DNA from: Massalongia carnosa | Lineage: Eukaryota | Reading direction: 5' to 3' | NCBI GenBank assembly: GCA_965645245.1 | Contig: OZ287078.1 | Location: forward strand, 1,054,001 to 1,118,000 | Length of the DNA: 64,000 bases | Shown here: positions 13,948-52,900 of the stretch, piece after piece | How the letters are laid out: each line of letters starts with the position of its first letter | Position numbering within the stretch: position 1 is the stretch's first letter | Notes under the pieces: model-generated | What the model was told of the DNA's origin: nothing | The model's database searches: none | What the model saw: the letters and a program-made list of their open reading frames with translations, nothing else | Translations under genes and position numbers: made by a program

Positions 13948-15967
13948 TATATGCCATTTCCATCAATCATAGATGTCGTTCTCATGAGGAAATGGCCTTA
14001 GGTTTTGATTTCTCGTCAACCACAGTTTTCAGTACAGGTCTTGCCGATTTGCTCGTTTCTGCAGGCGGCTGCAGGCGGCTCCAGTCGAGCGAATGATGTG
14101 ATATCTATGTTTTGATGCAACGGGTGCATCTTCATCCTTCCTTGCTGAGCTGTCAGTGCTCCACAGCTAGCCACGCCGATCCAGCTACCTACCATTCAAT
14201 CTAGCAACGCCGCCCAGCCAGTCTGTGCTGGCTATCGAGCCAGACATTACAGACACATGATGTTTTACTATACAGAGTACTTGGAAGTGATGCTTCTTTG
14301 ATCCTCGCTGAAGAGCATCCCTGCGATGAAACATGTCCCTTAATGTGGTGAATTTTATGAAGATTTTAGGTTGGCCATAAGTTTCACTCGTCAGGTCCGG
14401 CATTGATACCTGAATTTAGTATTGAAAAAGACCCTAGTGATTGTGAAAGAAAAGCATCCCAGTAACTCTGTTGGACGGCCACTCACGACACGGACCCCCT
14501 AACCATAAAATGCAAAGGAACCTCAAACCCAGCTCAGCACCTAAGCCCTAACCCTTCAGATGTTGAACCTCCAAATATCTCCCTTGATTAGCAGTTCCTG
14601 CTTAGGATGACTTACCTATTCATTATTCCTCGCATTTGCGACATATTTTCTACTAGTATAGGCTCCCGATCTCCTATATCTTCATTGAGGAATTGACACA
14701 ACAGCGCGACCAGAGTGGAACGGAAGAAGAAGAAGATGAACATCATGAATCGGAGAAAAAGGCCGAAGAAAGAGCGAATGGTTCCTGCCGACTTCCAGCT
14801 CGTTCCTTTACCGCTCTCCCCAATATCGAAAACATGAAGAAAACCATCAGACTCATCAGAAAACTCATGAAATGCTCAGATTCAGAGGCTCACTCTTCTT
14901 TCCTTTCCCTCCTCTCTCTCACCTTGTCACCCCATATTCTCTTCCCTCCCCCGGAATCCCCACCCCCATATCTTTTGTCATCTCACCAACTTTCTTCCTC
15001 TCCTTAACTCCCCCCTTTAAAAAACTCCCAACTAACCAGCCAGTTAATCAACCATCGAGCCAGTCAGCCACCTAACGCTCTACCCATTCCGCAGTCCTTC
15101 ACATACCCTATTCCTTCCTAATCCCTGTCCTTAGCAACGGAGATGGAGAAACCCGGATTAAATGATTGCGAGGAGAGAGCATGTGTATACAAGGAGGTAG
15201 ATATATAAGGGAGCATATTTACGTTCGTGCGTGGGCCTGTGTGTGTGTGTGTGTTGTATTGGGCCGAACGGGGAGAAGAAGAGCTGAAGAAGAGTGAAGG
15301 GAAAATAAAAGAAGAGCAAGGGAGGGAAAGGGAAGGGAAAGGGAGGGGAAGCACAAATAGATAGATATCTACTACAACTCCTACAAAATCAATCTCCCCC
15401 CTCCAGATCTCAACTTCCCTCGTGGAAGATAGAAAGAAGTCTCTAGCCCCTTTCCTTTCCTCCTTTCCCCAGAAGAAAATAACACAAACGGCCAGAACCC
15501 CCTAACCTCCCTACGTATATATCTACCCTCATTCATTCGGTGCGTTTTAGTTTTCTCCAACCAACCAACGAACCAACGAACACATATACACACATAGAGG
15601 TAAGGAAGAGAGGAAGAGGAGGAAATATGAAAACAAGGAAGTAAACAATTCCAACGAACCGAACAGTGAGTTTTCCTTTTCGTATCTTTTCCTAGTCTCC
15701 ATGTAGGTAAATTAGCGATACCTACCTATTCCTATACCTATATAAAACCCTAGAAACCTTGTTGTTCCGTTCGTTCCTTCATGCTTTTGCAAAAAAAAAT
15801 CACCTGCCTATCTGCTTACCCTCAAGTCCTCCCAATAGCGTATGCAGAACTTCCAAAACACACCGGTGTCCTGCCATAAGGTCCCGTTTTCACACATAAC
15901 ACAGTACACACAAAACATACATCCCAACCAAACCTACGTAATCCATGCGTCCACTTTTGCGGATTCC

Positions 15968-31357: not shown

Positions 31358-33349
31358 TTACGCTTTCAATTCGCCCCGCTCCATTACCGCTTCTCCTTCG
31401 TCATTGCTAGCACCATCACCATCCACCCCACGGCTATGGCCATCGTCAGCGCCACCACCACTAGCGACAACGCTGCTGCACCTTTTCCCAACCCTCCAAA
31501 TCGTCAGCCCCCTCCTCCCAAACACCCGCTGCACAGAATCCCACACTCCGTCCCCAACAAGATCCAGATCGTCCAACCCCACGTGTCGTCTGTATATCCA
31601 CAACTCCTCAAACACTAAGTCCCGATCGCCCTCACCCTGCATCCACGTGTCCAGTTCCATGCTTGATCTCGGTGCCACGAGTCCTACCCCCAGGCCACCA
31701 CAACCCTCGCCATCGACGCCAGCCCTGATCCTGGAGATCATGGCTTCCGGGCTTGCACCCATCAAATCCGTGACACGGATGCGATTCCCATCCAACAACC
31801 AGACGGGCGGGCTGTAAGTACGCCACCAAAAGACCTCCGCGCTGTGCAGGGCGCGCTGCTGCCCAAGCCATATCTGCGCAGGAATAACACCGCCTTGGTG
31901 GTAGACGCCCATAAGGCACGCAAGGGCGGCATTAAATATCAGCCAGACAGCAAGGAAGAGGCGAGTACGGGGGGGAGTTCGAGGGAGATGCGCAGCTGTG
32001 AGGAAGAGAGGCACCGCCGGAAGAAGAAAGCGGGGTTCTTGGTGCGGGATCAGGGATAGGAGGGCCGTGGCTGAGATAGCGGAGAGAAGAGGTAGTCGTG
32101 GGAGAGAGAATTTTGGGCGCGGAAGGAGGAATAAAGCTGGGCCCAAGAGAAGGGGAATAGAGACAAGAAGATGCTGATATAAGGGATGAAGGCCATGGAG
32201 GGAGAGGTTGGCGGTGGAGGTGTTGTAGAGGAGTGAGTTGAGAGGGGTTATGATGGGCGAGTGGAGAAGATGCCATGGAAGAGGGAGGGCAGACGAGGAA
32301 GTATAGAAGGCAGTATCGAGGGCGATGCCAAGGAGGGCCGTGAGGAAGGTCGTAAGGGCAAAGATGAGGAAAGAAAGCGGTCTGCGATATTTAGTAAGGT
32401 TGAAAAATCGTCTTGACCAAAGGACTTTATACTTTCGGAAGAAATGAGGGAGCAGGTATAGGCCGGGGAGGAGGAGGAAGGCGGGGAATGTGATGCGATT
32501 GAAGATTCCGAAGGTAGCGAGCGAGCCCAGGATGGCGGAAGAAAGGAGCGAGGATCGTTGCTGGAAATCGTGTAAGCACCAAGCTCACCCGGAACACCTA
32601 GATTCTGGAACGAACCTTATTTTCCAGGATCCGCTGGATCATGACCAAACTCCACGCTACAACCAGAGTTTCCACCGAGTTAGAAAACGTATGCGTTTGG
32701 TAAGTCCAGGTAACGTAGGAGGAAGCCACCAAGACCACAGCCAGTCTTCGATGGCGCGGAGACTGAACCAACTCATGAATTGCCCAATCCTCGAGAACGA
32801 AGCTTAGAATGAACATTAAAACCCGTAGGGTGTAGTAAATAATTCTAGGGGGTATATCTTCTTTCCCCGTCTCGGTCCAGAGCCATCGTAGCACCACCAT
32901 GGGGAAGCCATAAACTGGCCATAACGGGAAGACGCTTCGCACCGGGCGATCTGACGTAAATTCCCACGTCAAATGATGAGGGAAGGAGAAAAGATTGCCT
33001 GCACGATTTGATCAGATTAGCGGGTTGAGATTGATAGCGGTGCTGTTGGGATGAGTGCTGAATGCGAAGAAAAGGAAAAGGGGTTAGGGGTGCACCCTTA
33101 TTAAGGCTTATGCATGGTTAGCTCGCTGAAATCTTTCCATCTCCGGCGTCTTCGCCTGGCGAGGCTGATGACGCGCATTACACGTCTGGCACATAGGGCA
33201 CAATAGGGAAGGAGATCAACCGACGATCGCAGAAGCTTACCAGCAATCACCTCTGGTCCCTGGAAATTCTCATCCGGGTGGATGTAGCTAGGCGAAATGG
33301 CAAAATAGAATCTTGCAGCCAACAATACAAGGTACGTTCGTGTCCACAT
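31358..33349 (-). CDS. SMP3: GPI mannosyltransferase 4 (Smp3/PIG-Z, GT22)
   Basis: [68 protein letters not shown]. Confidence 0.92.
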
Positions 33350-34121
33350 GCTGAGTCAGTCCAGCATAGAATCGAGGGTGGAAGAGGAGAGTGACACGCT
33401 CGACTGATGCTTGAATGATCGCTTCATCCTTTTTGGAGTGTTGATACAGAGTACAAGCTGACAGAGAGAGGCGACCGGGTCTACTTCTGTTACTCTGAAA
33501 TTAATTACGTAGGCACGTGGGGAAAGAGAGACGAACGGGAAATTAATCTTATCTAAGAGTGGTCAACTTATAGAGTATTTTGCAGACTTCCTTTTGCCCT
33601 TTTGTCTTTTCCATTTTATCCTAGGTTGTTCCATGTCATTATCTGTCATTGAAATATAGAGTATATGTACTTATGTAGTCCAAGGTTTATCGCCTCTAAA
33701 GAATCCATTTGTTTTCACTTTCTTATCTTTTATTCATTATAACTATAGAAAATCAACCCGATGTGTCACCTAATGACCTCCAACCTCTTTGTAGAGTACT
33801 TTCCAAAACTTGAGCGTGCAACGAATGTCTTGAGCAGACAAAGTGCTCCACGCAGAAAGACTCGTGATACAAGCCCATTGCACCTTGAAATGCAACCGAG
33901 TATTATTTTTTCGCTACTTTTACTCTAGAACGCTGCTATCCTGGTTTCATTCTAAGCTCTCCACGGAAACAACGATTTTTGACCATGCTTTGGCTGACTG
34001 GTAGTTAACTTGCAAGACTGAAAAATTAACAAGCTTGTCCTCTATTGCCACCTTCTTTTTCTCCTTGCATGTTCCTCCAACTCACCTGTTACTTGTTGTC
34101 TGTCTACCTTTGCTACCCGTT

Positions 34122-35396
34122 CACGCGGGTGACAAAAAAACGTGAACACCAAAATTTTCGCTTGCTACACAACCTTTCTAACCTTCGCATTTATAATAAT
34201 GGAGCTCAATTCAGCCTCTAATTCTACTAAATATGGTGATTTTAATACTCCCACTAAAGCTAAATTTCAGGGAGCTATAGAATATGCTCAGGCGAAGGGA
34301 ATGCTGCACAGCAAGCAGGATGTTTTCGATTTTTTTTGGCATAGAAAGGACTCGAGGTTATGCTATGCTTAAAAACACGAACAATAGTCGTCGCGCTCAT
34401 AACGCTGATGAATCGGAGTCTCGTGGTCGTCATCATAAGCTTTCAGACGAAAATATTGATCATATGGATGAAATAGTACAAACGTGGGGCTTGGAGGGAA
34501 GAGCAATGACCTGTACTCAATTGGCTACAGCTGCTGAGGCTTTCTCCGTTTCATGGCGTACGATTCAGAGAGCCATGAACAAGCGAAATTATCAAAAATA
34601 CCTCGCATGCATCAAGACCTACGTTCCTGAGAATTTAATGAACACACGTCGTGCCTGGGCTTGAGAAAAAAGACACACATATTCGCTCAGTGACTTGGAG
34701 AAAGTACGATTTTCTGATGAGATACATTTCGGTCGTGGTCCACAGCGAAAGCTATGCATCATACGTCAACCTGAGCAGCGTACGTGTGACGATTGTATTC
34801 AGAAACAGCGTCCACCGAAAGAAAAAGACAAAAAACAGAAACGATATCATTGCTGGGCCGCTGTGGGTTGGAACTTCAAATCAGAGCTCATATTTTACGA
34901 AGTTCCCGGAAATTCCAATGGAAAGATGAGTCAAAGGGTATATATTGACTCCATTTTGGAGCCTGTAGTCAAGTCATGGCTGAAAAGAGGTGATGATTTT
35001 ATAATGGAAGAGGACGGAGATTCCGGGCATGGTTCAGGAAAGACAACGTCGTACGAAGATGGAAAGACGAGCATCAATTGAAAATACTATTTCAACTGCT
35101 CTCATTCTCCCGATCTTTCGCCAATTGAGAACTGCGGGCAGGTCCCCAATCAAATCGTTGGTCGTCAATCTCATTGGAATGATCAAACCACAATAGCTGC
35201 AATCAGAAAGGGGTAGGCGAAGCTTTCTCAGACCAAGATCAACGAATGGGTAGCATCAATGCCCAAAAGAATTGATGATGTGCTTGATATGAGGGGTAAA
35301 ATGACTGAATGATAAATTGTTTGATGTAAATAAGATATGAGATAATTAGCTAGCAAGCGAAAATTTTGGTGTTTGCGTTTTTTTGTCACCCGCGTG
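34122..35396 (+). mobile_element. Tc1-like (DDE_3) transposon copy A with CAC..GTG termini and 5-bp TSD CCGTT
   Basis: About 37-bp TIRs cacgcgggtgacaaaaaaacgtgaacaccaaaatttt / aaaattttggtgtttgcgtttttttgtcacccgcgtg; ccgtt at 34117-21 and 35397-401. Confidence 0.92.
34199..35312 (+). pseudogene. Tc1-like transposase, frameshifted and with stops
   Basis: NTPTKAKFQGA, GRHHKLS, VRFSDEIHFG, EEDGDSGHG, HSPDLSPIENC; several frameshifts and stops. Confidence 0.9.
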
Positions 35397-36135
35397 CCGT
35401 TTAAGCTGCTCCAAACTTTATTTGAGCTAGGATGTGTTTGAAAAAGACGTATTCATAGAAAATCATGCCCTTGGGAGAACAATATCCTGCCAACAAGACC
35501 CTATTTACAAAGGGCGTGTACACATTGGGGAGCTGGGCTTTGATGAACACCAAACTGGCAGACATAAGAGCCGAGTGCCCACAAAAATATTCACGAAAGA
35601 AAATGTCGAGCACACCAGCTTCCCGATAGAGTGGCCTTAGGCCTTAGGTTTTTTAAAAGAGAGCATGTATACTTCAAAAACATGCACTCCCTATTAATAT
35701 TAGTTGCAGACACTATCCGAAAATAACAAAGTGAAGAACTTTTTATGTTATATAAAGGTAAAGTGAAGGTTATTATACTGAATGGAGGTTGGGCATACCA
35801 TATGCAACAGGGAGCAACTGAAATCCTAAGTTTGATGGATCGATTAATGAAATGTAATGAATAGATGTCTAAAAAAGGGTTGTTACTGCGTGCTACTCTA
35901 TACTCATCACGCTAGACCTAATGCCTGGATTTATAGGTACCTACTCGCTTGACCGTTTGCGGAAAGGTCGCACCATGCTTGCCGCCTTGTCCAGACATTC
36001 AAATCATTCACATCTGACGAAGGACATCGTCATTTCGCTCAAAATATCTATTTTCTTCCATCAACAGCTCAACCGTTCTTACCATAACTCATAAAAAACT
36101 ACGCTATCCATTAAACTCAAATTCAAACTGACAAT

Positions 36136-36872
36136 ATGTCTACCCCCACTAACACTATCAAGCTCCAGAGCTCCGATCATGCTGAGCTCTCTGTCGGTGC
36201 GTAACTTTGCTCTCAACTATTACTGTTTGCGACAGTCGTGCTAATATTATGGTCCTCGATGTAGAACGGGAAGTCGCTGAGCGCTCGATTTTGATTAAGA
36301 ATATGATTGAAGATATGGGTGAAGAGGTTATCAGTGATGTTATTCCAATCCCTAACGTGCGTTGTTCGCTCCAAAAGTCAAATGAAGGTCAAAGGTTGAC
36401 GGTGAGGTACAGGTAAATGAGGCCGTTTTAAACAAAGTCATTGAATGGTGCATCCATCATCGTGCTGACCCCCCAGCATCCACCGACGATGATTCTGACT
36501 CGCGAAAGAAGACTACTGATATCGACGAGTGGGACCAAAAGTTTATGCAGGTCGACCAAGAGATGCTCTTCGAGATTATCCTGGTAAGTCAAGTTACCTC
36601 GCCAATCAATGATGGTATTTAATCGCGCGTGATATGTAGGCTGCCAACTACCTTGACATTAAGGCTCTCCTAGACGTTGGTTGCAAGACCGTTGCCAATA
36701 TGATCAAGGGAAAGTCCCCAGAGGAGATCCGCAAAACTTTCAATATCCAAAACGATTTCACTCCTGAGGAGGAAGACCAGATCCGTCGTGAGAACGAGTG
36801 GGCCGAAGAGTAGGCGCCTATCCTACAAACTTCTGTTTCGAACTTTGCTAATTTTGTTGATACAGCCGCTGA
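36136..36872 (+). CDS. SKP1: SCF subunit Skp1 (SconC-like)
   Basis: [87 protein letters not shown]. Confidence 0.96.
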
Positions 36873-37928
36873 GCATCCCTTATCCATATCGCCTCGGAAA
36901 GCACGCTGCTTTAGAGATACGAGCTCGCCCCTCTTACAGCATGGTTTATCCCCGTTATCTACAGTGCATCGGCTAGCAACGAATCATGGAATAGGCAAGG
37001 CGTTACGAACAGCGGCACTGTTTTTCTTTTGAATTGGTTCCGGTGCGGAGGGGCGGGCGGGGTATGTCTAAACCTGTATTCTCCTACAGCTCCCAATCTA
37101 GAGCGATCGGGTCCTCATTCTCTTTCCTTTTGTACCTCCATACTCCAGGCTTGTCTTTGAAAGCTCATTGAAAATGGCGGAGGCTTTAACGAAGTGGCAT
37201 AAATAACTCGGTAATCTACTTTCTGAACATACCAAGTTTGCCTAAAAGAGAAATCCATATCTAGTTAGCCAAACTTCCCACCCTACCCCATTCCATCTGA
37301 TTCGAAGTCTCGCTCTTCCATCCATCTCATCCCATCCATCCCTTCCGTTCTCATGCAGGAGCTCGGCGATACCCGAAAGTAAACTTGGCCGTGACCGATC
37401 CATTTACATACGATATATGGATAGATGAATTATATGATACTATTCAGAGAAGTTGGGGCTTGTAAGTGAGAGAAAGGAGAGAGGGAATGAGGGATTTGCC
37501 TATGCTAGCTAGCTAGCTAACTAGCTGGAAGGAAGGATTTCAGCTTTGGTTTTTGAGATCTCTTCTCCTTGCTCGCTCGCTTGCTATTTACCCCCATCTG
37601 TAAATCGGTATTTTCAACTGAGGGCCTCGGATCCTAATAACTAGCTCGCTCATCCTTCTCTCCCAACCTTCAAACTCCCACGACCGACAGACAGACCGAC
37701 CCCAGGTCTCCCTACCGCTACCAACAACTAGCACGAAACCGATGAAAGATAGAAGTATCGAAAGGAACAGCGAAATCTCATTTCCCCCCAATCTCTATCT
37801 CATCCCATCAGATCCCCCCGTTTCCCTGCCCTCCAACGAACGAATCTCGATGAATTGGCAGGGCTAGGGATTGGAAGGAAAAGGGGAAATCCGGAAATGC
37901 GCAGGGGAAGGGAAGGAGATGGAGGTAT

Positions 37929-38339
37929 TCAAATGCCAATGCGAGTCTTGCGCCAGTGGCGGCGTTTCGCATTGTATCTATTTGTTGTAAGTTTTGTGGG
38001 TTCCTTATTGAATCCGGATTTCGATTTGGGGATAATAAGGGGGAAACCGAGGAGCGAGGAGCGAAGAAGAAATCAAACGAACCGGATCGTGTTTCCCGTA
38101 CGTAGGCGGATCCACTGCGGAATCGGGCGATTTTGCTTCTGGGCTTTGGCGAGCTTCTGCTTCGTGCGGAATGACTTGTGAGACTGTTGTGTCGACGGGG
38201 GGCGGAGGGTGGCTGTTAGTGAGATTTCTGCTCTTCGTGTTTTTTTTTCTCTGCGCGTGATAGTAAAATTTGGGGGGAGGGGGGGGGGGATAGAGGGAAA
38301 GGAGACTGCGTAGATAGATGGATGGGGACGTACTGGCAT
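37929..38339 (-). CDS. RPL39: 60S ribosomal protein L39
   Basis: [51 protein letters not shown]; 2 introns. Confidence 0.96.
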
Positions 38340-38440
38340 TTTGGGAAGTTGTTGATTTGGGAGATGGTGGATAGAGGGGGTCGTGGATGGAGTTTGTGTG
38401 GAGGGCTCGCTTAGATAGTCTGCGCTAAGTCACGTGGCTA

Positions 38441-38702
38441 AACGGCAGGTGACACAAAAAACTGCACATTAAAGCTCGCTTAGCGGGTCATACTCAATAG
38501 TTTGCTTTCAATGTCTATGTTTTCAAATAAGTCTCAATCAATCATGCTTCTTTATTGATTAATAAAAGTTTGTAAATAACTTATGTATAAGCTGAACTTG
38601 TATTATTTCAAATTTTATAACTATCGAAATTTATTTGACGATATTATTGAAGCTGTCTGTAAAGGTCAGATTTGTGTGTGCCGTTTTTTTGTCACCCGCG
38701 TC
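38441..38702. mobile_element. Probable MITE of the CAC..GTG Tc1-like family
   Basis: Degenerate inverted ends acggcaggtgacacaaaaaactgcac / gtgccgtttttttgtcacccgcgtc; AT-rich non-coding interior of about 260 bp. Confidence 0.65.
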
Positions 38703-38806
38703 CTAACAGTAGTTACTCTGTATTGGCACGCGCGTGACAAAAATGGCCCGAACACCAAAATTTAGCCGAAATTTCTTTGATTGTACAGTCACATTAGACC
38801 CCCAAT

Positions 38807-39876
38807 ATGGAGCCCAATTTAGAGCTACGATTGACTAAAAAACAACCGCATACTACTCCTACTAAGGCTAAGGTTCAGGGAGCCATTGAATATGCACAGG
38901 CGAAAGGACTTTTGCATAGCAAACAGGACGTTTTCGATTTTTTCGGAGTGGGAAGAACTCAGGGTTATGCAATGCTGAACGATATCAGCACCAATCGTCG
39001 TTTGCATAATTCTTACATAGCATAGCCTCGAGGTCGACCTCATAAGCTGCTTAAAAGCATATTGATCGTATGCTTGAAATTTTGGAGACATGGGGCTTGG
39101 AGGGACGATCGATGACCTGGACTCAATTGGCTGCAGCTGCGGAGGCTCCCGTCGTTTCATGGCGTACGATTTAACAAGCTCTGAAAGAACGAAACTATCA
39201 TAAATGCACTGCTTGCACGAAGACCTTCGTGCCAGAAAATCTGATGAAAACACGAAGAGATTGGGCTTGGGAGAAAAGACACACCTGGGCTTTGAATGAT
39301 TGGAAAAAGGTACGATTTTCTGACGAGGTTCACTTCGGGCGAGGTCCACAACGAAAGCTTCAAATCATTCGAAAGCCTGTCAACGTACGTGTGAGGACTG
39401 CATTCAAGAACAACGTCAGCCAGAAGAGAAGGATAAAAAGCAGAAACGATATCATTGTTGGGCCGCGGTGGGCTGGAATTTCAAGTCGCAGTTGATATTT
39501 TATGAGGTTCCCAGCAATTCGAATGGAAAGATGAGTCAACGAGTGTATATTGACTCCATTCTGGAGCCGGTTGTCAAATCATGGATGGAAGAAGGTCATG
39601 AATTCGTATTGGAAGAGGATGGAGACTCCGGGCATGGTTCAGGAAAGGATAATATCGTACGACAATGGAAGGAGGCAAATGGGCTACGATATTACTTCAA
39701 TTGTCCTCATTCTCCTGATCTTTCTCCCATCGAGAATTGTTGGCAGGTTCCAAAACAAACGGTTGGACGTCAACCTCATTGGGATGATGATACCACAATT
39801 GCTGCAATTAAGAAGGGTTGGGCCAAATTTTCTCAGGCAAAAACCAATCAATGGATCGATTCAATGCCCAAAAGAA
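38807..39876 (+). pseudogene. Tc1-like transposase of copy B, disrupted
   Basis: TTPTKAKVQGAIEYAQAKG, VRFSDEVHFG, EEDGDSGHG...SPDLSPIENCW, SMPKR; cut at about 39877 by the Helitron. Confidence 0.9.
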
Positions 39877-40040
39877 TGCCCTGAAACGTAAGTGAAAGGG
39901 TTATGGAAGGAAAAACGGGGTGGGCTCGGTCTCCGCAAATGATTGGCTCTCAGCGTTTCCAATTCGGGCTCTCATTGATCATTAATGCGGACACTAGGAT
40001 TTTTGTCGCTCCGAAAGTCATGAGTCTAACCCAAACGGTC

Positions 40041-40137
40041 CATCTAGGGCAACCGTAGATGGAACGTTCTATTTCGTGTTACGGTGGTCACAAGGGACCT
40101 CAATGGTTCATCTAGGGCAACCGTAGATGGAACGTTC
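40041..40137. repeat. Two direct copies of a 29-bp hairpin-forming motif
   Basis: catctagggcaaccgtagatggaacgttc at 40041-69 and 40109-37; stem catcta...tagatg. Confidence 0.9.
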
Positions 40138-43100
40138 GGTATGGTTGAATGAACCTTCACGTGTCTTATTTTGATATCATGGCTATCTGCTGATAGATGT
40201 AACCCACTTTTCCTTACTCAATCGACTTTGAAATTTTGATTTTCGATTTTATAAGCGTTGTGCTGCCTTTGTAACTTCTTCCTGATGTTTGTAAAGGGGC
40301 AACGATCGTTCTTCGAGTTTGATTCTTTCGCATATAGCTTGTATAAAATGGCCAATTCTTTTAATCCTTATGTGCCAAAGCGTCTGATTGATGCTTCTCC
40401 TACACGTACTCGGAAACGAGGGAGACCCTCACATACGCCGCTATTAGCGACCTCTTTTCGCCGAATACTACCACGACCGTCTGGATCAAATGGGAGGGGG
40501 CCAGAGCACCGCCCTTGTTCTACATCTCGACCCGTTCTTCAGCCTACGGCCCACAACGGCCTTCTTGACTTCAAACCTAGAGAAGTATTGATTAATGATT
40601 TCAATAAAAGGAAAGCCGCCGCTTCGTCCTTTCCTCCTGTTCTCACCGATATCTCTACTCGCGAAGCTGTCAGGCGTTTCCAGACTCATGTAGAGACTGT
40701 CGTGGCCGATACTACGAATGTTTGCGCTTCTTGTGAACAGTTCATATCTCATGCTTTCGTTAACATGCTGCATAAAACAGATCTTGTATTTAGAAAGGCT
40801 GTGTTATCAAAGACAATCGTGGAAGCTGACCTTGATTGTTGTGGATTGAAGGATGGCAAGTTTTACTTCTGCAAAGCCTGTTTCGGAATGATTTTGCAAT
40901 CGAAAATCCCAAAATTTGGATCTGTCAATGCTGTCAGTATGTCAGCTTGTCAAAGTTATCCCATAATTCTTAAAGACCTGACGTCGGTAGAGGAAGCCGT
41001 CATTGCTCGAGCACCTCCTGTGATTTCGATAATGAAGTTAAGACCTAGTGAAGCCAGCCGTTTCATCTCCTATCAACGAATACGCAGTCATGCCGTAGTA
41101 CTTCCCCAAAATCCTGGGCCGTTACTCGATATTTTGCCGTCGAGCTCCTTAGTGCTGCATGATGTGATCCGAATAGTGTGGGTTAGCAAAAGGCCTCATA
41201 CCGTTGAAGATATTCGCCCCTTTGCTCGCATCAGAAGAGACAAAGTTTTACAAGCCTTGCTCTGGCTTAAAGACAACAATCCACTATACAAAAACATTGT
41301 CATCAACTACGGCTTGTTAGAAAACTGGGAAGACGAATTCGTTCCAGCGGGTATTGCTGATCGTGTTTTACAGTGTGGATCGGATTTTGCGGAAAGAGAA
41401 GGGTACACTATGAATCTTGAAAGTGACAACTACGAAAATGACCTGCATCATGCCGTCGAAGACGCTGGACTGGATGATTCGGATATATTAAGTGGATGTT
41501 TATACACAGACGCTGACGATACTCGAGAGCATCCAATAATGAAATTAGTGGCAGCAATGACGAATCATAAGCGCGCTGAGGATTCGATTAGTGCGTCTGA
41601 TTCACCAATCCTTACCTACGAAAGCAAAGGCCATCCGGTTCCCTTGAATGACTGGGATAATCCAGACTTCTTTACAGCTGCCTTTCCAACGCTTTTTCCC
41701 TTTGCCGTCGGTGGTCATATCATCAAGAAGAATGAATCTAGACAGACAAGGGTGTCGCTTCAGGCTTGGGCAAAATGGGTCCTATCTCATCATTCGAGAC
41801 GGTACGCTAATCTACATTTCTATGGAATTTAGCTGATGCATTTAGATTTGCCCGTCATCCTGCATTTATGTTTCTTGTGTACGACGTGATCAATCGACGT
41901 CAGGCATCATTAGGATATTCTCTACTCACCAAGACGAGACAATGGAAGGAAACACATGCTTTAGTGGATGCTATCACGTTCTCACAGCTTGAAGCTGCGG
42001 CTATAGAGATTAAAAAAACCGGGAAATGTACCGATTCGACTATTTTTAAATTGAAGCGTCAGGTTCAGGTAGTGGCCGTCACGACACCACACTCCTTCGC
42101 TAAATGCGTGGATCAAGCAATTCATATGAAAGCATTAATGCTGAGCGATGGAATGCCTGTTTTGTGGATTACGATTAATCCATCTGATCTTCGCAGTGTT
42201 TTAGTATTGGTTCTTGCTGGCATGCGATACGAGGACAGTAGTAAAGACAATTCTGCAGAAGAATTTGCAAGAACTACAGCAATAATGAATCCAGTAGCAG
42301 TGGCTCAATTTTTTGCGGCTACTTGCAGAGGTATTTTTGAGCATTTATTGGCCGCAAGTTTTGAAGACGGAGGTCTTTTTGGGCCTGTATCAACATATTT
42401 TGGTACTGTGGAGACAAACGGCCGAGGAATGTTGCATTTGCATTGCCTCGTATGGCTTCGCGGTGGTTTTCACATATCAAAGCTACGCAATCAATTGCGT
42501 TCCGATCCTGCATACACAACTCGCATGATACAGTTTATCGATCGTATAATTAAATGTTCCATTGTTCCTTCAGGAAGGTCGGATGTCCCAAAGCTGAACG
42601 CTCCATTAGCCTCTCTAAATGAGACTGATCGGGAATTCGCCCAAAGACTGGAGGATGATAGCAATGCCGTTGCCTCCAAGTGTCAATTGCATTCGTCGTC
42701 TCACAATGCAACGTGCTTTAAATATGGAGCCGCTGCCACCGGCCAATTTCGATTTGACTTCCCGCGACCTTGTAACGATCAAACGAAAATGACGGAAGAA
42801 GGCAATATCGAAGTGTTTAGAAACGGTGTCTGGATCAATCCTTGGTGTCCAGCCTTTGCCTCCCTTATCAGGTCAGATCACGATATCAACTTCATTCCTT
42901 CGAATGTTAAAGCCTTGGCCCTCGTACGCTATATAACTAACTACGCTACTAAGGGGGACTGCAGTCAATATCAACGGGTTATGGGGGCAGCATTTGTTCG
43001 CAATGCCTTTGAAGATGCAGCAGATAAATGTGTCGCGGCTGGTCATCCAGAACAAATACGGATCGTAGATGTTGACAAATTCGCTCTTCGGGCCTTTAAT

Positions 43101-45531
43101 CGGCTCGCATATGATCGAGAAATTAGTGGCCCTCTTGCTGCTAGTTCTCTGTTAGATTTGCCCGAGTATTTTACCCCGTGCCGGAATATAAAAAGACTCA
43201 ATCTTTTTGCTCTTCGTCAGAGATTTCCAAAATTGCTCTTTGCAGACATGTTTGAGTCGGATCCTATTGACAATTTTGTACGTTTTCGTCCATTCAAAGA
43301 ATTCCCAGTTAGCATGTTTGATCATTATCAATGGAGGGGATCAGAGCTAGCTTAGTATTCGCTATACGATTATTTCAAACTTATCACAATTGTTCAGTGA
43401 TCGCAATAGGGTCGACGACGATATTCCTTTCGGCAGCGGTCATCCACATCAACAATGTGGTGCGCAGCGTCCTTTAAAGCATCTTCATGCAGCACTTTGG
43501 TGGCTCTGATAGGGTCATTGTCGACAAACGAGGCCGCTGAAGACGCTATACAGGGAGGCCATCCAGATACAGATGCAAGACAGAATGATCTGGGTTTGAT
43601 TTTACTCGGTCTATCTGTTCCCTGGGATCAACTGTCAAGAAAATTTCATGCTCATAATGCTACCATATCGTCCTTTCTCAATTTTACCTGGCAAAGTTGG
43701 TTGGAGGCTACGGAAACTCTTGACGAATATGCGTTATATTGCGCTGACAATATTTTACAGATGAGAAAGAGTCAAATAGAATCGAAATTAGATCAAGAAC
43801 AGCGACGTGCTGCTAAGAATCAGGCCATGGAGATGTCAGTTCGAGAATTATTAGAAGAAAATGAAACCGGCCAGGCCGATGAAGCAGAAGAATCAGAAAT
43901 TGACGAATATCTAGGCCTGCCAAACGCTCATACACTTTTGAATGCTGTAGATATAACTCGTCATCGATGGAGAGAAATGGATGCTGCAAACAGTCGCGGG
44001 GTTTCGGTTTTGTCTCATATGCAGCACTCTTTGCAAAGAGCTGACGATGAGGGTACTTCTCAAAGCGATTTACGATATGATCTGAACCCATCTGGAGTGG
44101 AAACAAATATTTGCTCCTATCTTGACGTTAGTACCAATTTCAGCCAAATCACAACTGATTTATGGAAGAAGGTGCAAAATTCGGCCAACGCTCAACAGGG
44201 TGAATACGATGCTGAAGACAGAACAAATGACTTTAGCGATCATGTCGAGGCCTCTATACACCGCACATCTATCTGCTTTAGGGGAATTGGAGCCTGTAAT
44301 AAATCATTTCATTTCATCAGAACCGATCGTCATGGATCTCAACTGCGGAGTCTTACTGCCTGATAATGATTGCAAAACAGTTTCAGATCATATACACACT
44401 GTTTTGCCTTTGAATTACTTAAAGCGATTGGTTGTCGAGGAGATTCTTGATCATGTCATACAAACCAAGGGAAAAGCATGCCTCAGAAGAGAAGATCAGT
44501 TGTTATTGTACATCAGAGGTGAAGGAGGTGTGGGGAAAAGTCGAGTCGTGAAAGCTCTAGAGTTGGGCTTTGCTTTACTAAACAGAAGAGCGGAGTTAAT
44601 AATTACAGCACCAACTGGATGTGCGGCCGAGAGTATTGGGGGGAGCACCGTACACACAGCGTTGAAGATTAACACTCGACGTGCAAATGATAATGTATCC
44701 AAAATAGGTTCATCATGGACTCGGCGATCAGCCCTCGTCGTTGATGAAGTGAGTATGATTGATCTCAAACTACTCACTGCGATGGATAAGCAATTGCGAA
44801 AGCCTAGAGGTTCGGATTTTTCTTCCACCGCTCTCTTCAGAGGTCTACCTCTTGTAGTCCTTATGGGGACTTTTATCAATTCGCCCCGGTAAGTGGACAT
44901 GCTCTTTGGGATGAAGCTGTAGGTGAAGATGAGATACACGGGAAAACGTTATGGAATAATTTCACATACATCATTACTCTCACAGAGATGCGTGAAAAAA
45001 ACGATTCAGTATTCCAAGCATTGCTCAAACGAGCAAGGAATGGAGAACTCAATCTTGAAGACGTAGATACTCTAAACGATCGAGTCGCAACAAATCTTCC
45101 GATCTCACAGTCAATGGACAGCGTCGTTGTTGTGCAAAAAAACAAGACGAGACATCTAGTGAATCGATTGCAGATCGAGAGATTCGCTCGATCTCAAAAT
45201 CGAGACATACTTCTCTTTCCTGCCGAGCATTTCCGGACCAAAAAAAGATGGTGGTAGAATCGTTGAACACGAAGATCTTTTCAACGCACAGGATGGGGAA
45301 GGCAATTGCACAGGACCAGGCTTGTTATTTTACTGCAAAGGCATGCCCGCTGGATTGTTAGCCAATCAATGCACACCGTTAGGAATAGTTAACGGGGCCA
45401 GAGTTGTGGTTTATGGCCTTGTACCTCATCCTGATAGTACGCTTCTTCTCTATTATCAAGAATCTCGCTGACGTCGTCTAGCGACCTTTCAAAGACTGGA
45501 CATTCACACTATTCTGTGTTCCCATCCGCTA

Positions 45532-47700
45532 GAAGATTTCCCGAGGAAATGCCGCACCCGACGAAATGCCGCATCTTCTCACTTTCCAACCATTACTTTC
45601 AGACATGAATAAATCCACCCTCAACGCTCGTATCGAGCTCGCAATTGCTGATCTGAATCAGCAAGATCAGCCTAACCTCAGGGGGACAGCTAAAAGGTTT
45701 AGCCTAGTCGAAAGTACCCTCCGGAGGCGCTGGAAAGGCCAAACGGTGTCCCAAAAGGCAGCCGCGTCAAAATACAAGCAACGACTTACCTTGGCCCAGG
45801 AAGAGGCCTTAATTCAGCAAATCAATCGCCTTGTCGATCGTGGACTGCCCCCAACCGCCAGAATTGTACGAAACCTAGCGGAGGAGGTGATAGGAGGGCC
45901 TGTAGGGAAGAACTGGACAGGGGATTTTGTCCGCCGATACAAGGATAGGCTTAAAAGTCTTTATCTTCGAAATATGGATAGCCAGCGTATAAAATCTGAG
46001 TATCCGCCTTTATTTAAGCAATTCTACGATTTGGTAGCGTGTTAACTACCCATTCCTATTTGTTGAATATTAATTATGATCGAAAATAACTAATGTTTCT
46101 ATTAGCTAATCGCCGGTGTCGAAAAATACAATATCACGAGGGAAAACCTTTACAATTGGGACGAAAAGGGCTTTGTGATTGGCCAAGCAAGCGCCACGCA
46201 ACGTATCATGTCGCTAGAGGCCCTTGAATCAGGGCGGATCACACATGCAAGCCAGGACGGGAATAGGGAGTTTATCAGCCTCCTTGCTTGTATCGGGGCC
46301 GACGGAACCGCTTTACCTCCTGCCTTGATCTATAAAGGCGACTCTGGCATACTCCAGGATACATGGGTTGAGGATGTAAATCCTAATGACGAGGCGTTCT
46401 TTGCAGTATCGGCGAAAGGATGGAGTTGTGATATCCTTGGCCTAAATTGGCTAGAGCAGGTTTTTCAGCGTTATACGAAGCAAAAGGCTAGAAATAGAAG
46501 ACGTTTACTGATAGTAGACGGTCATTCTAGCCACGTGAATCTTAAGTTTATCGATAAATGCGATAACTTACGTATTCTTCTCCTGATTCTACCTTCGCAC
46601 TCTACGCATCGTTTACAGCCTCTGGACGTTTCTCTATTCGCGCCGTTAGCAACGTTCTATACCAATGGGCTGAATAGACTAATGTTCGAGAGTCTAGGCA
46701 TGATAAACATGTCAAAAAGAGCCTTTTGGAGCGTTTTCTTCCCTGCATGGCAGCAGGCATTTTCGGAGGAAAAAATTACTTCTGCCTTCGAAAAAACCGG
46801 TATTTGGCCTTACAATCCGAGCCTTATACTAAATGTTATCACACCACAGATAATCGAGGCTCCTTCTCAGTCGCCAAAAACACCAATGACAAGCCGTGCT
46901 ATTCGCCGTACGCAGCGAGCGTACGATATTGCGCCTACAAATTTATTACTAGCAAAGATCTTCCGGGCTAACGAACGCCTTGCTGCCCAGGACTCTATCA
47001 ACAAATACGTGATCAAAGGGCTCTGCAATACCCTTCAGGACGAAAAGAAGAGGAGGAAGAGAGGTAAACGGCTTAATTTAGTTGGGGAAGAGGACTCAGG
47101 CCCTCAATTCTTTAGTCCTAGGCGAGTACAGGCTGCCAGGGAATTTCAAGCAGCAAAAGAGGAAGAAGAAGCACAACGCCAGCTAGATATTAGCGAGAAG
47201 CGACGACAAGCTACTGCTAAAAGGTTACAGAAAGAAGAGGAGAAGCTAGAAAAGGTAGCAATCGCTCTAGAGAAGCGGCGATTGACTGCAGAAGCAAAGG
47301 TAGCAAAGGCCGCTGAGAAGCAGGCTCAGAAGGAGTTACGTAAAACAGCAAACAGATATCCTAAGGGACAGCTCGGGCAGCAGAAGCAGTATACAGGGTC
47401 TAATAAAGTTCAAAAGACTCGAAAGAAGAAGGTAAAGCCGCCTACTCGTGTTATTATCGCTAAAGAGGTAGAGGAGGTGGTTTTAACTACCTCGACTGGA
47501 AGAAGGGTCCAGCGCCCAGGGCGTTTTGCTATGTAAGGTTTTTAAGGTCGGATATCGTGTATATACTTTCTATTTATACTATATTTAATACACATTCCAT
47601 TAATCGTTGTAGTTGTTGATCAACGACGAAAACAATATTCTAATGCCGAATTGTAAAGTGCGGCATTTCACCGGGCGCGGCATTTCCTCGGGAAATCTTC
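45532..47700 (+). mobile_element. pogo/Fot1-type transposon, TA TSD, apparently intact
   Basis: TIRs gaagatttcccgaggaaatgccgc / gcggcatttcctcgggaaatcttc with an internal repeat of gaaatgccgc; TA at 45530-31 and 47701-02. Confidence 0.96.
45605..47536 (+). CDS. pogo/Fot1 DD35D transposase
   Basis: Exon 1 45605-46033, intron 46034-46105, exon 2 to 47536 in frame. HTH and CENP-B-like region, YNWDEKGF, IVDGHSSH-35aa-QPLDVSLF. Confidence 0.92.
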
Positions 47701-48876
47701 TACGCTGTGTTTTACTTCAAAGGCGTACTCGCCTACAAAAGTCTTTTCCTGAACTCCCTGATGATGTTTTCCCAACGTTTCCGATTAAATCAACGTTAAA
47801 GTTACCTGGCTTGAAAGTTTCTAGAAATCAAATTCCGCTTACCCCTGGATTTGCTGTCACAGATTACAAGGTACAAGGAGCTACATTTAAAACTGCGGTC
47901 TTAGATCTACGCCGAGGGCAAAAGATTAGAAAGGAATCTCACAAAAGATTTTGGTCTACCTATGTACAGCTGTCTCGCCTTCAATCTTTAGACGGTGTGC
48001 AATTGCTGGAGGGGAATAGAGCTGAGCGATATCAACAACAAACCTCACATAAATCTTCAACAGGCGAGAAAAGAACTTGACATCTTTTCCAATAACACCT
48101 TGACTTCTTGGACTCTTCGGTTTAATGCGAGACGCCAGAATGCTTGTTTTACTCCCAGGGTCAATTGAAGGTTGAAGGTTCATGGACCTATCAACGAAAA
48201 TAGCATCTACGATTGAAATCATTGAGATTAGGCTAGAAACTTATCGCATTGAGCTTAGGGTTTGATTCATTGATTAGCACCACTTCGGATGTTGAGTTTC
48301 GCCGTTCCATCCTAGCCGCTTTTACTCTAGCGGCGATCTTAATCCATGTAAATCAGAATCCTAAAAGTTTCAGGGCTTGCGTGCCAGTCGAAACGACGCG
48401 CGCCTCCAGTTTTGGTGTTCGGCCATTTTTGTCACGCGCGTGATTGGCTACTCTCCATGGAGTTTTGAAGGTGGATGTTCCCACTCACGCCTTGAGTCAA
48501 CAAATAGCATTTTCATAGATATCTGCTAACGAGATGCCATCTCCTCCCATCTGTGAAGTCATCAAATTTCAAACAACAGGAAGGAAACTGAAGACCGATC
48601 CGAAGAAAACAAACGGCACTGCATCCTTGAAGACTAAAAAGAGCTTTGAAGCTTTACCTTTTGTCTCGTTAAAAGCAGGGTGCTTTCTGTCATTGACAGT
48701 GTGTCAATCATGAGTCATCGTTGCCGTCTCTGTAAATGTACAACGAAGGGACGGGATACAGAATAGACAGCGGTTTCGGGAAATGTTATGTCTACTATGT
48801 ATTGTACACTGACAGTCAGACGTGCCTTTAGCCTTGTTCATTTGGCAAAGTTCCGAATGCACTTTATTACGGTGTG

Positions 48877-48946
48877 AGTCACTCATGATTCATGGTTCAT
48901 GATTGTCATGTAGTCACTCATGATTCATGGTTCATGATTGTCATGT
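48877..48946. repeat. Perfect 35-bp tandem duplication
   Basis: agtcactcatgattcatggttcatgattgtcatgt x2. Confidence 0.95.
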
Positions 48947-49939
48947 AACTTCTGTCAGAAATCGAAGCGGTGAACGAATGCCGATGTGCATGAATAGGAT
49001 GGTGCGCGGTTTACAATGCAACAAGTTCTCAAAGTAGGACCATTTCCTGCTGCCTGAGGTACTTTTTTGATGGGTTCTCTAATGATTGCAGCTTTGTCAT
49101 TAATAAAACCGTTCTGCAAATCGCTGAGGGCATTATATCTTTCTCCACACATTTAGAGATAAAAACTTAAAGCTGTGACGAGAGAGAGTGAATAGATTTC
49201 TACCATTGCGCCACCTGGTCCCAGCCCTACCGGGCAATACAGTCAGCAGACCAAGCTCTATTCTACTATAACTCGGAATCCTGCTATGTTCGCTGTAGGT
49301 CCTGCCGTTCGGACCACGCATGGTCGAACCGTTACAAAAGTGAGTGAGTGAGCATGGCAGGATCGAATGATAATCCGATGAGGCTTAGAAACGTTCCACG
49401 GAGCAATCGAAAGCGGAAGTCTGGGAGTCACGGCTGCATAAGGGTCGTCTACGGTTCAAAGTTCAATTCAAGTCATTGGTGCAGTTCTTCCACATTTATG
49501 TAGCACTGATGCACCTTTAGCGAGCCTCGGTACATGTTTTTCCCCGGAAGCCCCCATATCCGAATGCCGGCTTCCAATGACTATGAAAGACCAGAGATCA
49601 AATCTTACGTGTCTGCCTATTCCTATTCTTTGTCAGTTTCGCTTTTGTACCTATATCCATCATCCTTTCATCACGCTCGTCGAGTTTAGAGGATACAGAC
49701 GAGAGGAGTGCTTCCGTTGTAATTTAGGACGTCTTAGGCGTTGTTCCATTTTCTCCCTTTCTGTGGAGTAATATATTTTGATTACCGGTCTGCTTAGATT
49801 ACACAACATTTTTGGTTTTCATTTTAGCTTCAGCTTCGATGCGGATGTGATAGTTGAGAATTTTCTAATTCCTTATCTCCTCAAACCAAAAAAAAACCTG
49901 GCTGCCCATTAGTTATCCACCACAGGCTGGTTACTCACC

Positions 49940-52900
49940 ATGGACCCCACTGGCGAAGATCTTGCCCACGTAGCTAAAGAGATTGATTGGAAGATAGAAA
50001 AGCAGGCATTGCATAGCTCGAATCTGCAAGAGGTCGGTCAAACAGGCAAGGCCGAGGAGGAGAAACCACAGCAATATCCAGCATCCTCGAAGTCTTCTTC
50101 AGAGGACGCGTCGCGGCTAGAGAAACCCGATTCCCGGATATTTAAGGTCACCGAGACCAAGGATGGAGATGAAGCATATGCGCACCTTCCACCACACGAG
50201 AAGGATATCATCAAGAAGCAGCTAGATATTCCTTCTGTCAAGGTGACATACCAGACCCTGTTCCGCTATGCCACCAGGAACGATCTGATCATCATATACA
50301 TCAGCTCCCTGTGTGCCATCGTTGGTGGTGCTATCATGCCCCTTATGACCGTAAGCGACGCAAGGTTAATGCTTGGAATTGAAGATATTTGCTGACTTTC
50401 CAAAAGGTCATATTTGGTCAATTGACAGGCGTGTTTCGGGACTTTTTTCAGGGAACGCTGTCCCAACACGATTTCAATGCCAAGTTAGGGCACTTCACGC
50501 TTTATTTCCTATATCTAGCAATTGGAGAGTTTGTGACCATCTATGTCTGCACCGTTGGCTTCATATATACAGGAGAACATATAACGCAGAAGATCCGGCA
50601 GCAATATCTCGCTGCCATCTTGCGCCAGAATATTGCTTATTTCGATAAGCTTGGTGCCGGAGAGATAACGACTAGAATCACTGCGGATACGAACCTGATC
50701 CAAGATGGGATCTCCGAGAAGATTGCTCTGTCCTTGACTGCTCTTGCAACTTTTTGCACCGCATTCGTTATAGCATTTATCAAGGCATGGAAGCTTACGT
50801 TGATTTTGTCTTCGACCGTGTTTTCCATTGTCACCGTCATGGGGTTGGGCTCGAGTTTCATCATCAAATACAACAAGAAATCACTCAACTCTTACGCTCT
50901 TGGAGGAACCGTTGCGGAAGAAGTCTTCAGTTCGATTCGAAATGCGGTTGCTTTCGGGACGCAGGAGAAGCTTGCTAGGCAGTATGATATCCATCTCAAA
51001 GAAGCCGGCAAATGGGGTACTAAGATGAAGATTTCCTTGGCTTGCATGATTGCGGGTATGATGTGCACAGTCTACCTGAACTATGGCCTCGCTTTCTGGC
51101 AGGGGTCTAGATTTATTGTGACAGGCGATATCACCCTCTCTAGCGTCCTTACCATCATGCTCGCTATTATGATTGGAGCTTTTTCACTTGCCAACGTCGC
51201 TCCAATGGGGCAAGCATTCACCACAAGTGTTGCCGCAGCCGGGAAGATATACAGCACGATTGATCGAACATCTCCTTTGGATCCAGGGTCTGAAGCAGGG
51301 GTGAAGTTAGAGCAGGTAGAAGGTACAGTGGAGCTGGAGCATATCAGGCATATCTACCCCTCGAGGCCTGAGGTGGTGGTCATGGAAGATGTCAGCCTTG
51401 TTGTACCTGCAGGAAAAACGACTGCCTTGGTTGGAGCGTCAGGGTCTGGGAAAAGTACAGTCATCGGGCTTGTAGAGCGATTCTATGACCCTGTTGGTGG
51501 TCGGGTTTATCTTGACGGCCATGATGTTTCCTCGCTGAATTTACGATGGCTTCGACAGCAAATCTCACTTGTGAGCCAAGAGCCAACGCTTTTTAGTACA
51601 ACCATCTATAGCAACATTCAACATGGGCTCGTAGGGACCAAATGGGAAAACGCGCCCGTGGAGCGCCAGAAAGAGCTTATACTCAATGCCGCGAAGATGG
51701 CCAATGCCCACGACTTTGTCAGTAGTCTACCGGAAGGGTATGAAACCAATGTTGGAGACCGTGGCTTTCTGCTTTCTGGTGGGCAAAAGCAGCGTATCGC
51801 AATTGCGAGAGCCATGGTCAGCGATCCCAAGATACTTTTGCTAGATGAAGCTACGTCAGCATTAGACACCAAATCTGAAGGAGTCGTGCAAGCTGCTCTT
51901 GATGTGGCGGCCCAAGGAAGAACCACCATCGTCATTGCTCATCGTCTTTCCACCATCAAAACAGCTGACAACATTGTTGTCATGTCTCATGGAAAAATTG
52001 TTGAACAGGGTTCTCATGACCAACTCCTGGAGCAACGGGGTGCTTACTTTAGGCTTGTGGAAGCTCAAAGGATCTCTGCGGAGCGAGAAGAAGACGACGC
52101 AGAAGAAACCTCGCAGTTGAATGAGACTGAAGAACGACTTGTAAGATCAATTACGGCGGAAAAGTCCAACAAACCGGTGGCTGATCCTGCCGATTTGGAG
52201 CTTGGCAACAAACTTGATCGCACAGCCACCGGCAAGTCGGTGTCCAGCGTGGCTCTACAGGGCAAGAATGCAGGTCCTGGAGCTCAGTACTCTTTATGGA
52301 CATTAATAAAGCTTGTCGGAAGCTTTAACAGAAAAGAAACCTATCTAATGATAATCGGCCTGTTTTTTTCCATCATTGCCGGGGGGGGTAATCCTACGCA
52401 GGCAGTGTTTTTCGCCAAGTCCATTGTGGCTCTATCTTTACCTCCTCAGAAGTATGGCCAGCTTAGGCACGACGTCAATTTCTGGGCTCTAATGTATTTG
52501 ATGCTAGGGATTGTAATGTTTCTGTCTTTTGCTGGTCAAGGTATTGCTTTTGCATATTGTTCCGAACGGTTAGTTCACCGAGCACGAAACCAAGCTTTTC
52601 GAACGCTACTGCGTCAAGACATTGCCTTTTTCGACAAAGAAGAGAATTCCGCAGGCGCTTTGACTTCGTTTCTCTCTACTGAAACGACTTTTCTGGCCGG
52701 CATGAGCGGCGTTACTCTCGGAACACTCCTAGTGGTCTCGACTACGCTCATTAGTGCCGTTGCACTGTCTTGCGCCATCGGGTGGAAATTGGCTCTAGTC
52801 TGTACTTCGACGATTCCGATTCTGCTTGGCTGTGGTTTCTTCCGATTCTGGATGCTTGCGAGATTCCAGGATAGAGCAAAGAAAGCGTATGAAGGGTCAG

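Follow-up and report, generated by a model that had tools for sequence, protein, structure and literature searches.

A Tc1/IS630-type transposon family of filamentous ascomycetes that very probably makes 5-bp target-site duplications, with two dead copies in Massalongia carnosa

Introduction

A stretch of 64,000 nucleotides of contig OZ287078.1 from Massalongia carnosa (GenBank assembly GCA_965645245.1, positions 1,054,001 to 1,118,000 of the forward strand) was analysed around two transposon copies with matching inverted ends. The whole stretch is called the window here, and positions are counted from its first letter. The two copies, both of them dead, and one solo end are in all likelihood the remains of a DNA transposon of ~1.3 kb from a Tc1/IS630-type family that makes 5-bp target-site duplications (TSDs). 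The TA target and the length of its duplication are used as hallmarks of Tc1/mariner elements in textbooks, classification schemes and annotation software, and tools that seek TA would misplace the borders of elements from a large fungal clade that breaks this rule, or fail to classify them. What would be new here is a Tc1/IS630-type family that duplicates 5 bp; that curators already know it is possible, if somewhat less likely than the contrary.

Two dead copies with 5-bp flanks

The inverted ends of copy 1 (34122-34167 and 35351-35396) were found by repeat search to extend over 46 nt with 96% complementarity. They are abutted by CCGTT on both sides (...GCTAC CCGTT/CACGCGGG...CCCGCGTG/CCGTT TAAGC, with slashes at the element boundaries), a match at five of five positions in which the longest exact flanking repeat is 5. 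The transposase gene is broken by one frameshift near 34335, after which a single frame continues to 35306 with three in-frame stops; in an alignment with homologues, two of these three stops correspond to Trp. Homologues cover copy 1 over 34241-35306 (tblastn), and its product matches Pfam DDE_3 at an E value of 6e-4 and database homologues at 84-40% identity. The stretch occurs in a lichen-metagenome run and in runs of two organisms identified by code; copy 1 is present in the former as well, one contig of which spans 32000-34459.

The own sequence of copy 2 consists of 38727 to ~39956 and ~48361 to 48442 only. Its ends (38727-38748 and 48421-48442) are 100% complementary over 22 nt, or inverted over ~33 nt if mismatches are allowed, and they are abutted by ATTGG on both sides (...CTGT ATTGG/CACGCGCG...CGCGCGTG/ATTGG CTACT). 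Copy 2 aligns with copy 1 at 76-84% over 38851-39877, and the segment 39324-39881 matches Pfam DDE_3 at an E value of 2.2e-9 (37.7 bits against a cut-off of 28.6). No TA adjoins any end of either copy. A preliminary description of the window had reported both copies with matching ends, exact 5-bp flanks of different sequence (CCGTT and ATTGG) without TA at any end, and a Tc1-like protein in each, with the Glu 37 residues from the EED Asp. Direct reading of the letters confirms the coordinates, sequences and flanks, the motifs were found in both copies, and counting on copy 2 gives the same spacing. The same description had copy 2 run from 38727 to 48442; its ends and flanks stand, but it is a copy of normal size with nested insertions and not a 9.7-kb member of the family. 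Both window copies are inactive, copy 1 having a frameshift and stops and copy 2 frameshifts, stops and an 8.4-kb Helitron.

A search of the window with the pattern of the inverted ends gave six matches at three or fewer mismatches, against 0.18 expected from shuffled sequence. These are the four ends of the two copies, a solo right end and one overlap with three mismatches. The solo right end sits 24 bp before copy 2, is 76% identical to the right end of copy 1, and matches the pattern with one mismatch at 38686-38702; no transposase remnant was found upstream of it by tblastn. Its position beside copy 2 suggests repeated insertion into one small region. In three sequencing runs the depth over the Tc1-like element was 10-18 times that of its flanks, a ratio that does not equal copy number, and contig joints point to two or more further forms of it.

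Flanking repeats across the family

Related loci (80, with numbers prefixed by L) were taken from metagenome contigs, and inverted repeats were sought around each gene. If a locus had an inverted pair scoring at least 17 and both flanks on the contig, it was counted; this applied to 39 loci, and the addition of both window copies brings the sample to 41 elements from 34 distinct sites. Loci were left out if the terminal bases were missing (L010, L031, L032), if the contig stopped at the terminus (L015, L033, L041), if the pair was internal (L045, L055), or if there was no pair or one of only 9-16 nt. The element end was placed where C(A/T) first occurs no more than 3 nt from the detected repeat, a rule that trimmed the ends at nine of the 34 sites (L009, L016, L020, L024, L038, L049, L051, L059 and L073).

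An exact 5-bp direct repeat abuts the ends at 20 of the 34 distinct sites, and four of five positions match at two more. The longest exact flanking repeat is exactly 5 in all 20 exact cases. As a control, left and right flanks were paired wrongly in 1122 combinations, of which 0.36% match at five of five positions and 5.5% at four of five. The 20 exact sites hold 19 different pentamers in unrelated flanks. Three near-identical elements (L047, L053 and L076) lie at different sites with the pentamers ACTGG, CCGAC and CCCGC, respectively, and are separate recent insertions. Four loci (L006, L007, L014 and L035) combine a full-length open reading frame (ORF) with 5-bp flanks; in L006 and L007 the ORF is 365 amino acids long. 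Leaving aside copy 2, which is lengthened by nested insertions, the elements are 1254-1459 bp long but for three of 1509-1803 bp.

A tree of the 41 transposases was built with a quick IQ-TREE search and rooted on a canonical Tc1 element from the same window, described below. The 5-bp repeat is found in almost every sub-clade, and where an element lacks it, a sister element carries it (L003 beside L057, L038 beside L047), a pattern that fits secondary loss or chimeric contigs and not another mechanism. The preliminary description had proposed an IS630-Tc1-mariner lineage with 5-bp instead of TA duplications, and this proposal has held up across other copies, in which 5-bp duplications recur with the frequency and the distribution given above and no exact site has a longer repeat.

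The ends themselves vary among CAC(G)...GTG, CAAG...CTTG and CTCG...CGAG, with the consensus 5'-C(A/T)(C/A)G(C/T)GG(G/T)TG-A-CAAAA... in inverted repeats. The CAC...GTG termini of the window copies, at first taken as a trait of the family, are thus not conserved among relatives, and the likeness to Transib that they suggested is therefore superficial, leaving only the number five.

In one locus (L007:2661-4122, with the same site in L008) the Tc1-like element lies inside a second pair of inverted repeats of 44 nt, which looks like an insertion into an element of ~190 bp with inverted ends of its own.

Target site

Within the pentamers of the 20 exact sites, C occupies position 1 in 13 cases and position 2 in 14, and G occupies position 4 in 11 and position 5 in 10. 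Beyond the pentamer, A is found at -2 in 13 cases, T at +7 in 13 and A at +8 in 15. A larger sample was drawn by scanning for junctions at which 16 or more of the first 20 nt agree with a verified end, which gave 99 distinct flanks; the two ends of one insertion are counted separately in this number, and a few are probably false. Numbered backwards from the element, these flanks have T at -8 (48), A at -7 (53), C at -5 (44), C at -4 (53), G at -2 (56) and G at -1 (51), such that the half-site reads T, A, S, C, C, W, G, G and then the element end. The target is a palindromic statistical consensus, 5'-TA-S/CCWGG/S-TA-3', of which the CCWGG pentamer is duplicated. A palindromic target is the expectation for a symmetrical enzyme dimer. 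The preliminary description had spoken of lost TA specificity; TA is indeed not duplicated, but the palindromic site has T-A one base outside CCWGG on each side.

Transposase

Both window copies encode the motifs FSDE...EEDGDSGH...SPDLSPIE in degenerate form, and the signatures of the family are (R)FSDE, LEED-G-D-S-G-H and SPDL(S/A)PIE. The translation of copy 2 has 37 residues from the Asp of EED to the Glu of PIE, that is, DD37E. Among 127 family proteins matched by motif pattern, 76 have a spacing of 37 and 28 one of 38, and the second motif reads DGDSGH in 78 and DNDSGH in 15. The translation of copy 1 from 34338 to 35306, with stops written as X (P0001), was used as a search query, and 184 of 524 candidates are database relatives at E<=1e-3, many of them intact and 360-385 amino acids long. 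The few that are named come from Colletotrichum, Clathrospora, Rutstroemia, Acephala, Clonostachys, Parathielavia and Drechslerella, and further named carriers are Pseudogymnoascus, Xylona and Trichodelitschia; the named relatives are filamentous ascomycetes. Species among them are Colletotrichum sublineola, Clonostachys rosea and Xylona heveae. A profile search of 1.84 billion representative proteins put the size of the family at 506 clusters at E<=1e-30.

Pfam DDE_3 scores above its curated cut-off in four of five intact homologues, and the NCBIfam IS630 model aligns over nearly the full length at E values of 1e-8 to 3e-16, but below its cut-off. A profile of 18 family members was compared with solved chains, and its sole match was the catalytic domain of Sleeping Beauty (E 7e-16). 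In this alignment FSDE is paired with WSDE, LEEDGDSGH with FQHDNDPKH, and SPDLSPIEN with SPDLNPIEN. The family has three extra residues just after the second motif, which account for the spacing of 37. An AlphaFold model of an intact homologue (P0007, from a 44-sequence alignment) has a mean predicted local distance difference test score (pLDDT) of 83.7. With Foldseek, the model matches full-length Mos1 transpososome chains at an E value of 4e-12 with 366-378 columns aligned, and Sleeping Beauty at 23% identity with a template-modelling (TM) score of 0.73-0.75 on the target. It contains two helical bundles before the core. The Pfam domain HTH_Tnp_Tc3_2 was matched below its cut-off only (26.1 and 17.2 bits against 31.5) and is pre-annotated on some database homologues. 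Based on the Pfam matches, the Sleeping Beauty profile match and the fold, the family transposase is of the IS630-Tc1-mariner type.

A zinc-binding Cys pair between the first two catalytic residues was considered as a further feature and rejected, as the first Cys is not conserved in the alignment.

The canonical Tc1 element of the window, on which the tree was rooted, contains an open ORF of 328 amino acids (12706-13692) with strong matches to HTH_Tnp_Tc3_2 and DDE_3, and this element may be intact. Its second motif is FMQDNAPIH, followed at 34 residues by the Glu of SPDLNPIE (DD34E), and its CAGT ends lie in a TATA context, the classical TA duplication. Identity to the DD37E family is only ~25%. 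TA-duplicating and 5-bp-duplicating kinds of Tc1 element coexist in one genome.

Nested insertions and neighbouring features

The coordinates of the elements in the window are collected in Table 1. The 8.4 kb nested in copy 2 are a Helitron that itself holds a Fot1/pogo element. The ends of the Helitron are bounded by contig joints and are not placed to the base, as a three-way alignment did not fix them. Its Pfam domains are DUF6570 (40285-41832), Helitron_like_N (41868-43355) and PIF1 (44209-44892). In contigs of public runs, 39956 is joined to 48361, and 39965 to 48349; these contigs represent further copies of the Tc1-like element that have no Helitron. The Fot1/pogo element has an open ORF of 442 amino acids with HTH_Tnp_Tc5 and DDE_1 matches in Pfam. 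Contigs in all four runs join 45529 to 47702, and copies of the Helitron without the pogo element therefore exist.

Table 1. Transposable elements of the window, with their genes and flanking duplications
Feature	Position	Strand	Remarks
DD34E Tc1 element	~12604-13953		33-nt inverted ends
Copy 1 left 5-bp TSD, CCGTT	34117-34121		identical to 35397-35401
Copy 1, DD37E Tc1-like element	34122-35396	+	1275 bp, complete but dead
Copy 1 degenerate transposase gene	34201-35312	+	ATG at 34201, terminal stop TGATAA
Copy 1 right 5-bp TSD, CCGTT	35397-35401
Solo right inverted end, all that is left of a third copy	38670-38702	+	ends ...GTCACCCGCGTC
Copy 2 left 5-bp TSD, ATTGG	38722-38726
Copy 2, dead Tc1-like element split by nested insertion	38727-48442	+
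Copy 2 transposase remnants	38807-39884	+	spread over 3 frames, several stops
Helitron nested in copy 2	39957-48360 (approximate)	+	ORFs broken into several pieces
Fot1/pogo element inside the Helitron	45530-47702	+	44-nt inverted ends, 93% complementary
Copy 2 right 5-bp TSD, ATTGG	48443-48447

Three further observations concern the surroundings of copy 2. An ORF on the minus strand (38073-38339) has a C-terminal part that we take to resemble ribosomal protein L39, and if the ORF encodes L39, a host gene lies within a few hundred bases of copy 2. Just downstream of copy 2, at 48877-48946, there are two perfect tandem copies of a 35-nt unit. At 49182-49336, over ~155 bp, contig depth, summed, exceeds that of the surroundings by a factor of hundreds in four of four runs, with many loose contig ends at 49182 and 49336. 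This segment looks like a very abundant short repeat, and it gave no Rfam family and no tRNA call.

Proposed mechanism

The elements would be compact cut-and-paste transposons, and their family is large and spread across filamentous ascomycetes. Their single gene encodes an IS630-Tc1-mariner transposase of ~360 amino acids with a predicted two-part helix-turn-helix N-terminus and a ribonuclease H-like DDE core. With Tc1, Mos1 and Sleeping Beauty as models, the transposase would bind the inverted ends, cut the element out and join both 3' ends to the target. The flanking repeats suggest a stagger of 5 bp between the strand transfers, in place of the 2 bp of TA, and gap repair would then leave the 5-bp duplication. 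Insertion prefers, as a statistical consensus, the palindromic site described above.

The changed target geometry may most plausibly be set by the sequence D-G-D-S-G-H-G together with the three extra residues after the second catalytic Asp. The loop that follows this Asp, whose counterpart in Sleeping Beauty is at the surface facing target DNA, is a candidate determinant of the stagger, which we offer as a lead only. In Sleeping Beauty, K248 lies four residues after the catalytic D244 and adjoins target DNA in a model, and a change of K248 abolishes integration and not excision (PMC6943129).

A broader claim would be that a whole clade of the superfamily, with hundreds of clusters at 50% identity across filamentous ascomycetes, has rebuilt its capture of targets, with a 5-bp stagger, a palindromic site and a change that maps to this loop, and that it is the first such lineage and undescribed. 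We regard this claim, taken as a whole, as finely balanced, tipping slightly towards the negative. In any case, relatives of Sleeping Beauty, Mos1 and impala that differ in strand-transfer spacing and in target sequence constitute a natural experiment, and comparison across the family could reveal the parts of a transposase that set stagger and target choice. There is practical interest for transposon vectors and for tools of fungal mutagenesis, and the intact-looking copies with 5-bp flanks make the question accessible at the bench.

Alternative explanations

Several results weigh against a family that makes 5-bp duplications. With the ends as first defined, twelve of the 34 sites have neither a five-of-five nor a four-of-five repeat. 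Ten of the twelve show no repeat at all (L003, L004, L016, L019, L020/21, L023, L028, L029, L038 and L044). Of the other two, L012 has mutated ends and shows CCTGC on both sides only after extension by hand, and L013 (927-2360) gives GACCC if its left end is allowed two more bases, CA. We would ascribe the repeat-less sites to decay, to recombination among copies or to chimerism in the metagenome contigs. Among the 20 exact cases, five (L009, L049, L051, L059 and L073) depended on trimming by 1-3 nt. Outside the count, a miniature element of 79-81 bp that is little more than the two ends (L022, 238-318) gives CCATG with an extra CA at its left end, and L034 (666-2024) has a 7-bp repeat, CCCAGGT, with an extra GT at the left. 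Two sub-clades (L028/29 and L013/16), both divergent, are without a clean case. The spacing alone cannot be the cause of the 5-bp trait if impala, a DD37E element, duplicates TA as it is reported to do.

Empty sites also failed to appear. The contigs of the four runs on 32000-50000 contain no joint across copy 1 or copy 2. Empty sites were also predicted by joining the left and right flanks wherever a distinct site had 60 bp or more on each side, and these had no junction-spanning match among all the fetched loci and the window. The preliminary description had proposed this comparison; with no empty site found, duplication on insertion is inferred and not observed.

The alternative that fares best accepts the 5-bp duplications and supposes that a library such as Repbase or Dfam has an entry for the family, perhaps labelled Mariner/Tc1 or TcMar, in which this duplication is recorded. 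The abundance of the family in the representative clusters and the years of curation of fungal repeat libraries speak for this, as do RepeatMasker labels such as TcMar-Sagan, which are reported from fungi and for which our searches turned up no definition. On the other side, our searches of the full-text literature, with Repbase, Dfam and the supplements of phylogeny papers outside their scope, returned no paper with a Tc1-type family, or any IS630-Tc1-mariner family, making 5-bp duplications, and recent papers give TA as the rule (PMC10045372, PMC4054914, PMC13469147). We treat prior cataloguing as a serious possibility, albeit one rated below its opposite.

That the 5-bp matches arose by chance, or from insertion into pre-existing short tandem repeats, is highly unlikely. 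Some sites do lie in repetitive sequence, such as that of L014 in a CCTA-rich stretch, and the missing empty sites leave room for this reading. The rate of exact matches among true flanks compared with mismatched pairs, the constant repeat length of exactly 5 bp in 20 of 20 cases and the 19 different pentamers in unrelated flanks all argue against it.

Even less probable is an ordinary TA-duplicating Tc1 element whose true ends lie further out, with the 5-mers inside the element. The T-A found one base outside the pentamer on each side of the target consensus would suit such an element, and the detected inverted repeat ran 1-3 nt further in five elements. However, the 5-mers are direct and not inverted (for example CCGTT, ATTGG, CCTGC and ACCCC), and they differ among the near-identical elements L047, L053, L076 and L049; they are therefore not part of the element, and longer ends flanked by TA are excluded on that account. 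Furthermore, the outer T-A is missing from about a quarter to half of the sites, and the right flank of copy 1 (CCGTT-TAA) puts TA at +6/+7, which is not the symmetrical place.

The weakest alternative, a Transib/RAG-like or other 5-bp superfamily mistaken for Tc1 from short motifs, has the 5-bp duplications and the CAC...GTG ends of the window copies and some relatives in its favour, and is next to negligible in view of the Pfam, NCBIfam and Sleeping Beauty matches, the Mos1/Sleeping Beauty fold and the many relatives that end in CAAG or CTCG.

Comparison with known systems

IS630-Tc1-mariner elements are described as having "2 bp TSDs of TA in general" (PMC10045372), and the TA rule is stated likewise elsewhere (PMC4054914, PMC13469147), including for fungal pogo-like elements (PMC2836289). 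Of the marks of membership in this superfamily, the family described here has the DDE_3/IS630-type transposase and lacks the 2-bp TA duplication.

The ciliate element TBE1 makes a 3-bp duplication. Duplications of 3 bp are also made by Zator/ISAzo13 elements (PMC10045372). Both systems resemble the present family in that they likewise do not duplicate TA, and they show that duplication length can vary within or next to the group. They differ from it in the 3-bp length, the hosts and the transposase lineages, and none is reported with 5 bp.

Impala is ~1.3 kb long, and impala of Fusarium oxysporum and its miniature derivatives, the mimps, reportedly insert at TA and duplicate it. Impala is given as DD37E (PMC7325037) and has one ORF of 340 amino acids (PMC5579170). 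To that extent the likeness is considerable: both are fungal and Tc1-like, with DD37E, a single ORF and a similar end architecture. The difference is the 5-bp duplication here as against the TA duplication reported for impala. The full mimp end pattern had no match in the window and the 80 loci, and its inner 11 positions match the ends of four loci. A second difference lies two residues after the second catalytic Asp, where this family has Asp (DGDSGH) and the groups without K248, Impala among them, are said to have invariably Ala (PMC6943129). No database relative of the family bears the name impala; by description, impala is the nearest named relative to which we can point.

Transib elements make 5-bp duplications and have CAC ends. 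Their likeness to the present family is limited to the number five and, in some copies here, the CAC ends. The transposases are unrelated, as the fold here is that of Mos1 and Sleeping Beauty, and CAC is not conserved in the family.

With Tc1 and Sleeping Beauty (DD34E), the family shares the fold, the catalytic motifs and the design of a single gene between short inverted repeats. The DD34E elements have a spacing of 34 and, as in the example from the window and in a published description (PMC4054914), a TA duplication and CAGT ends. The present family is set apart from Tc1 proper by a spacing of 37 or 38, by ends that read CACG, CAAG or CTCG, and by a 5-bp duplication at a site centred on CCWGG.

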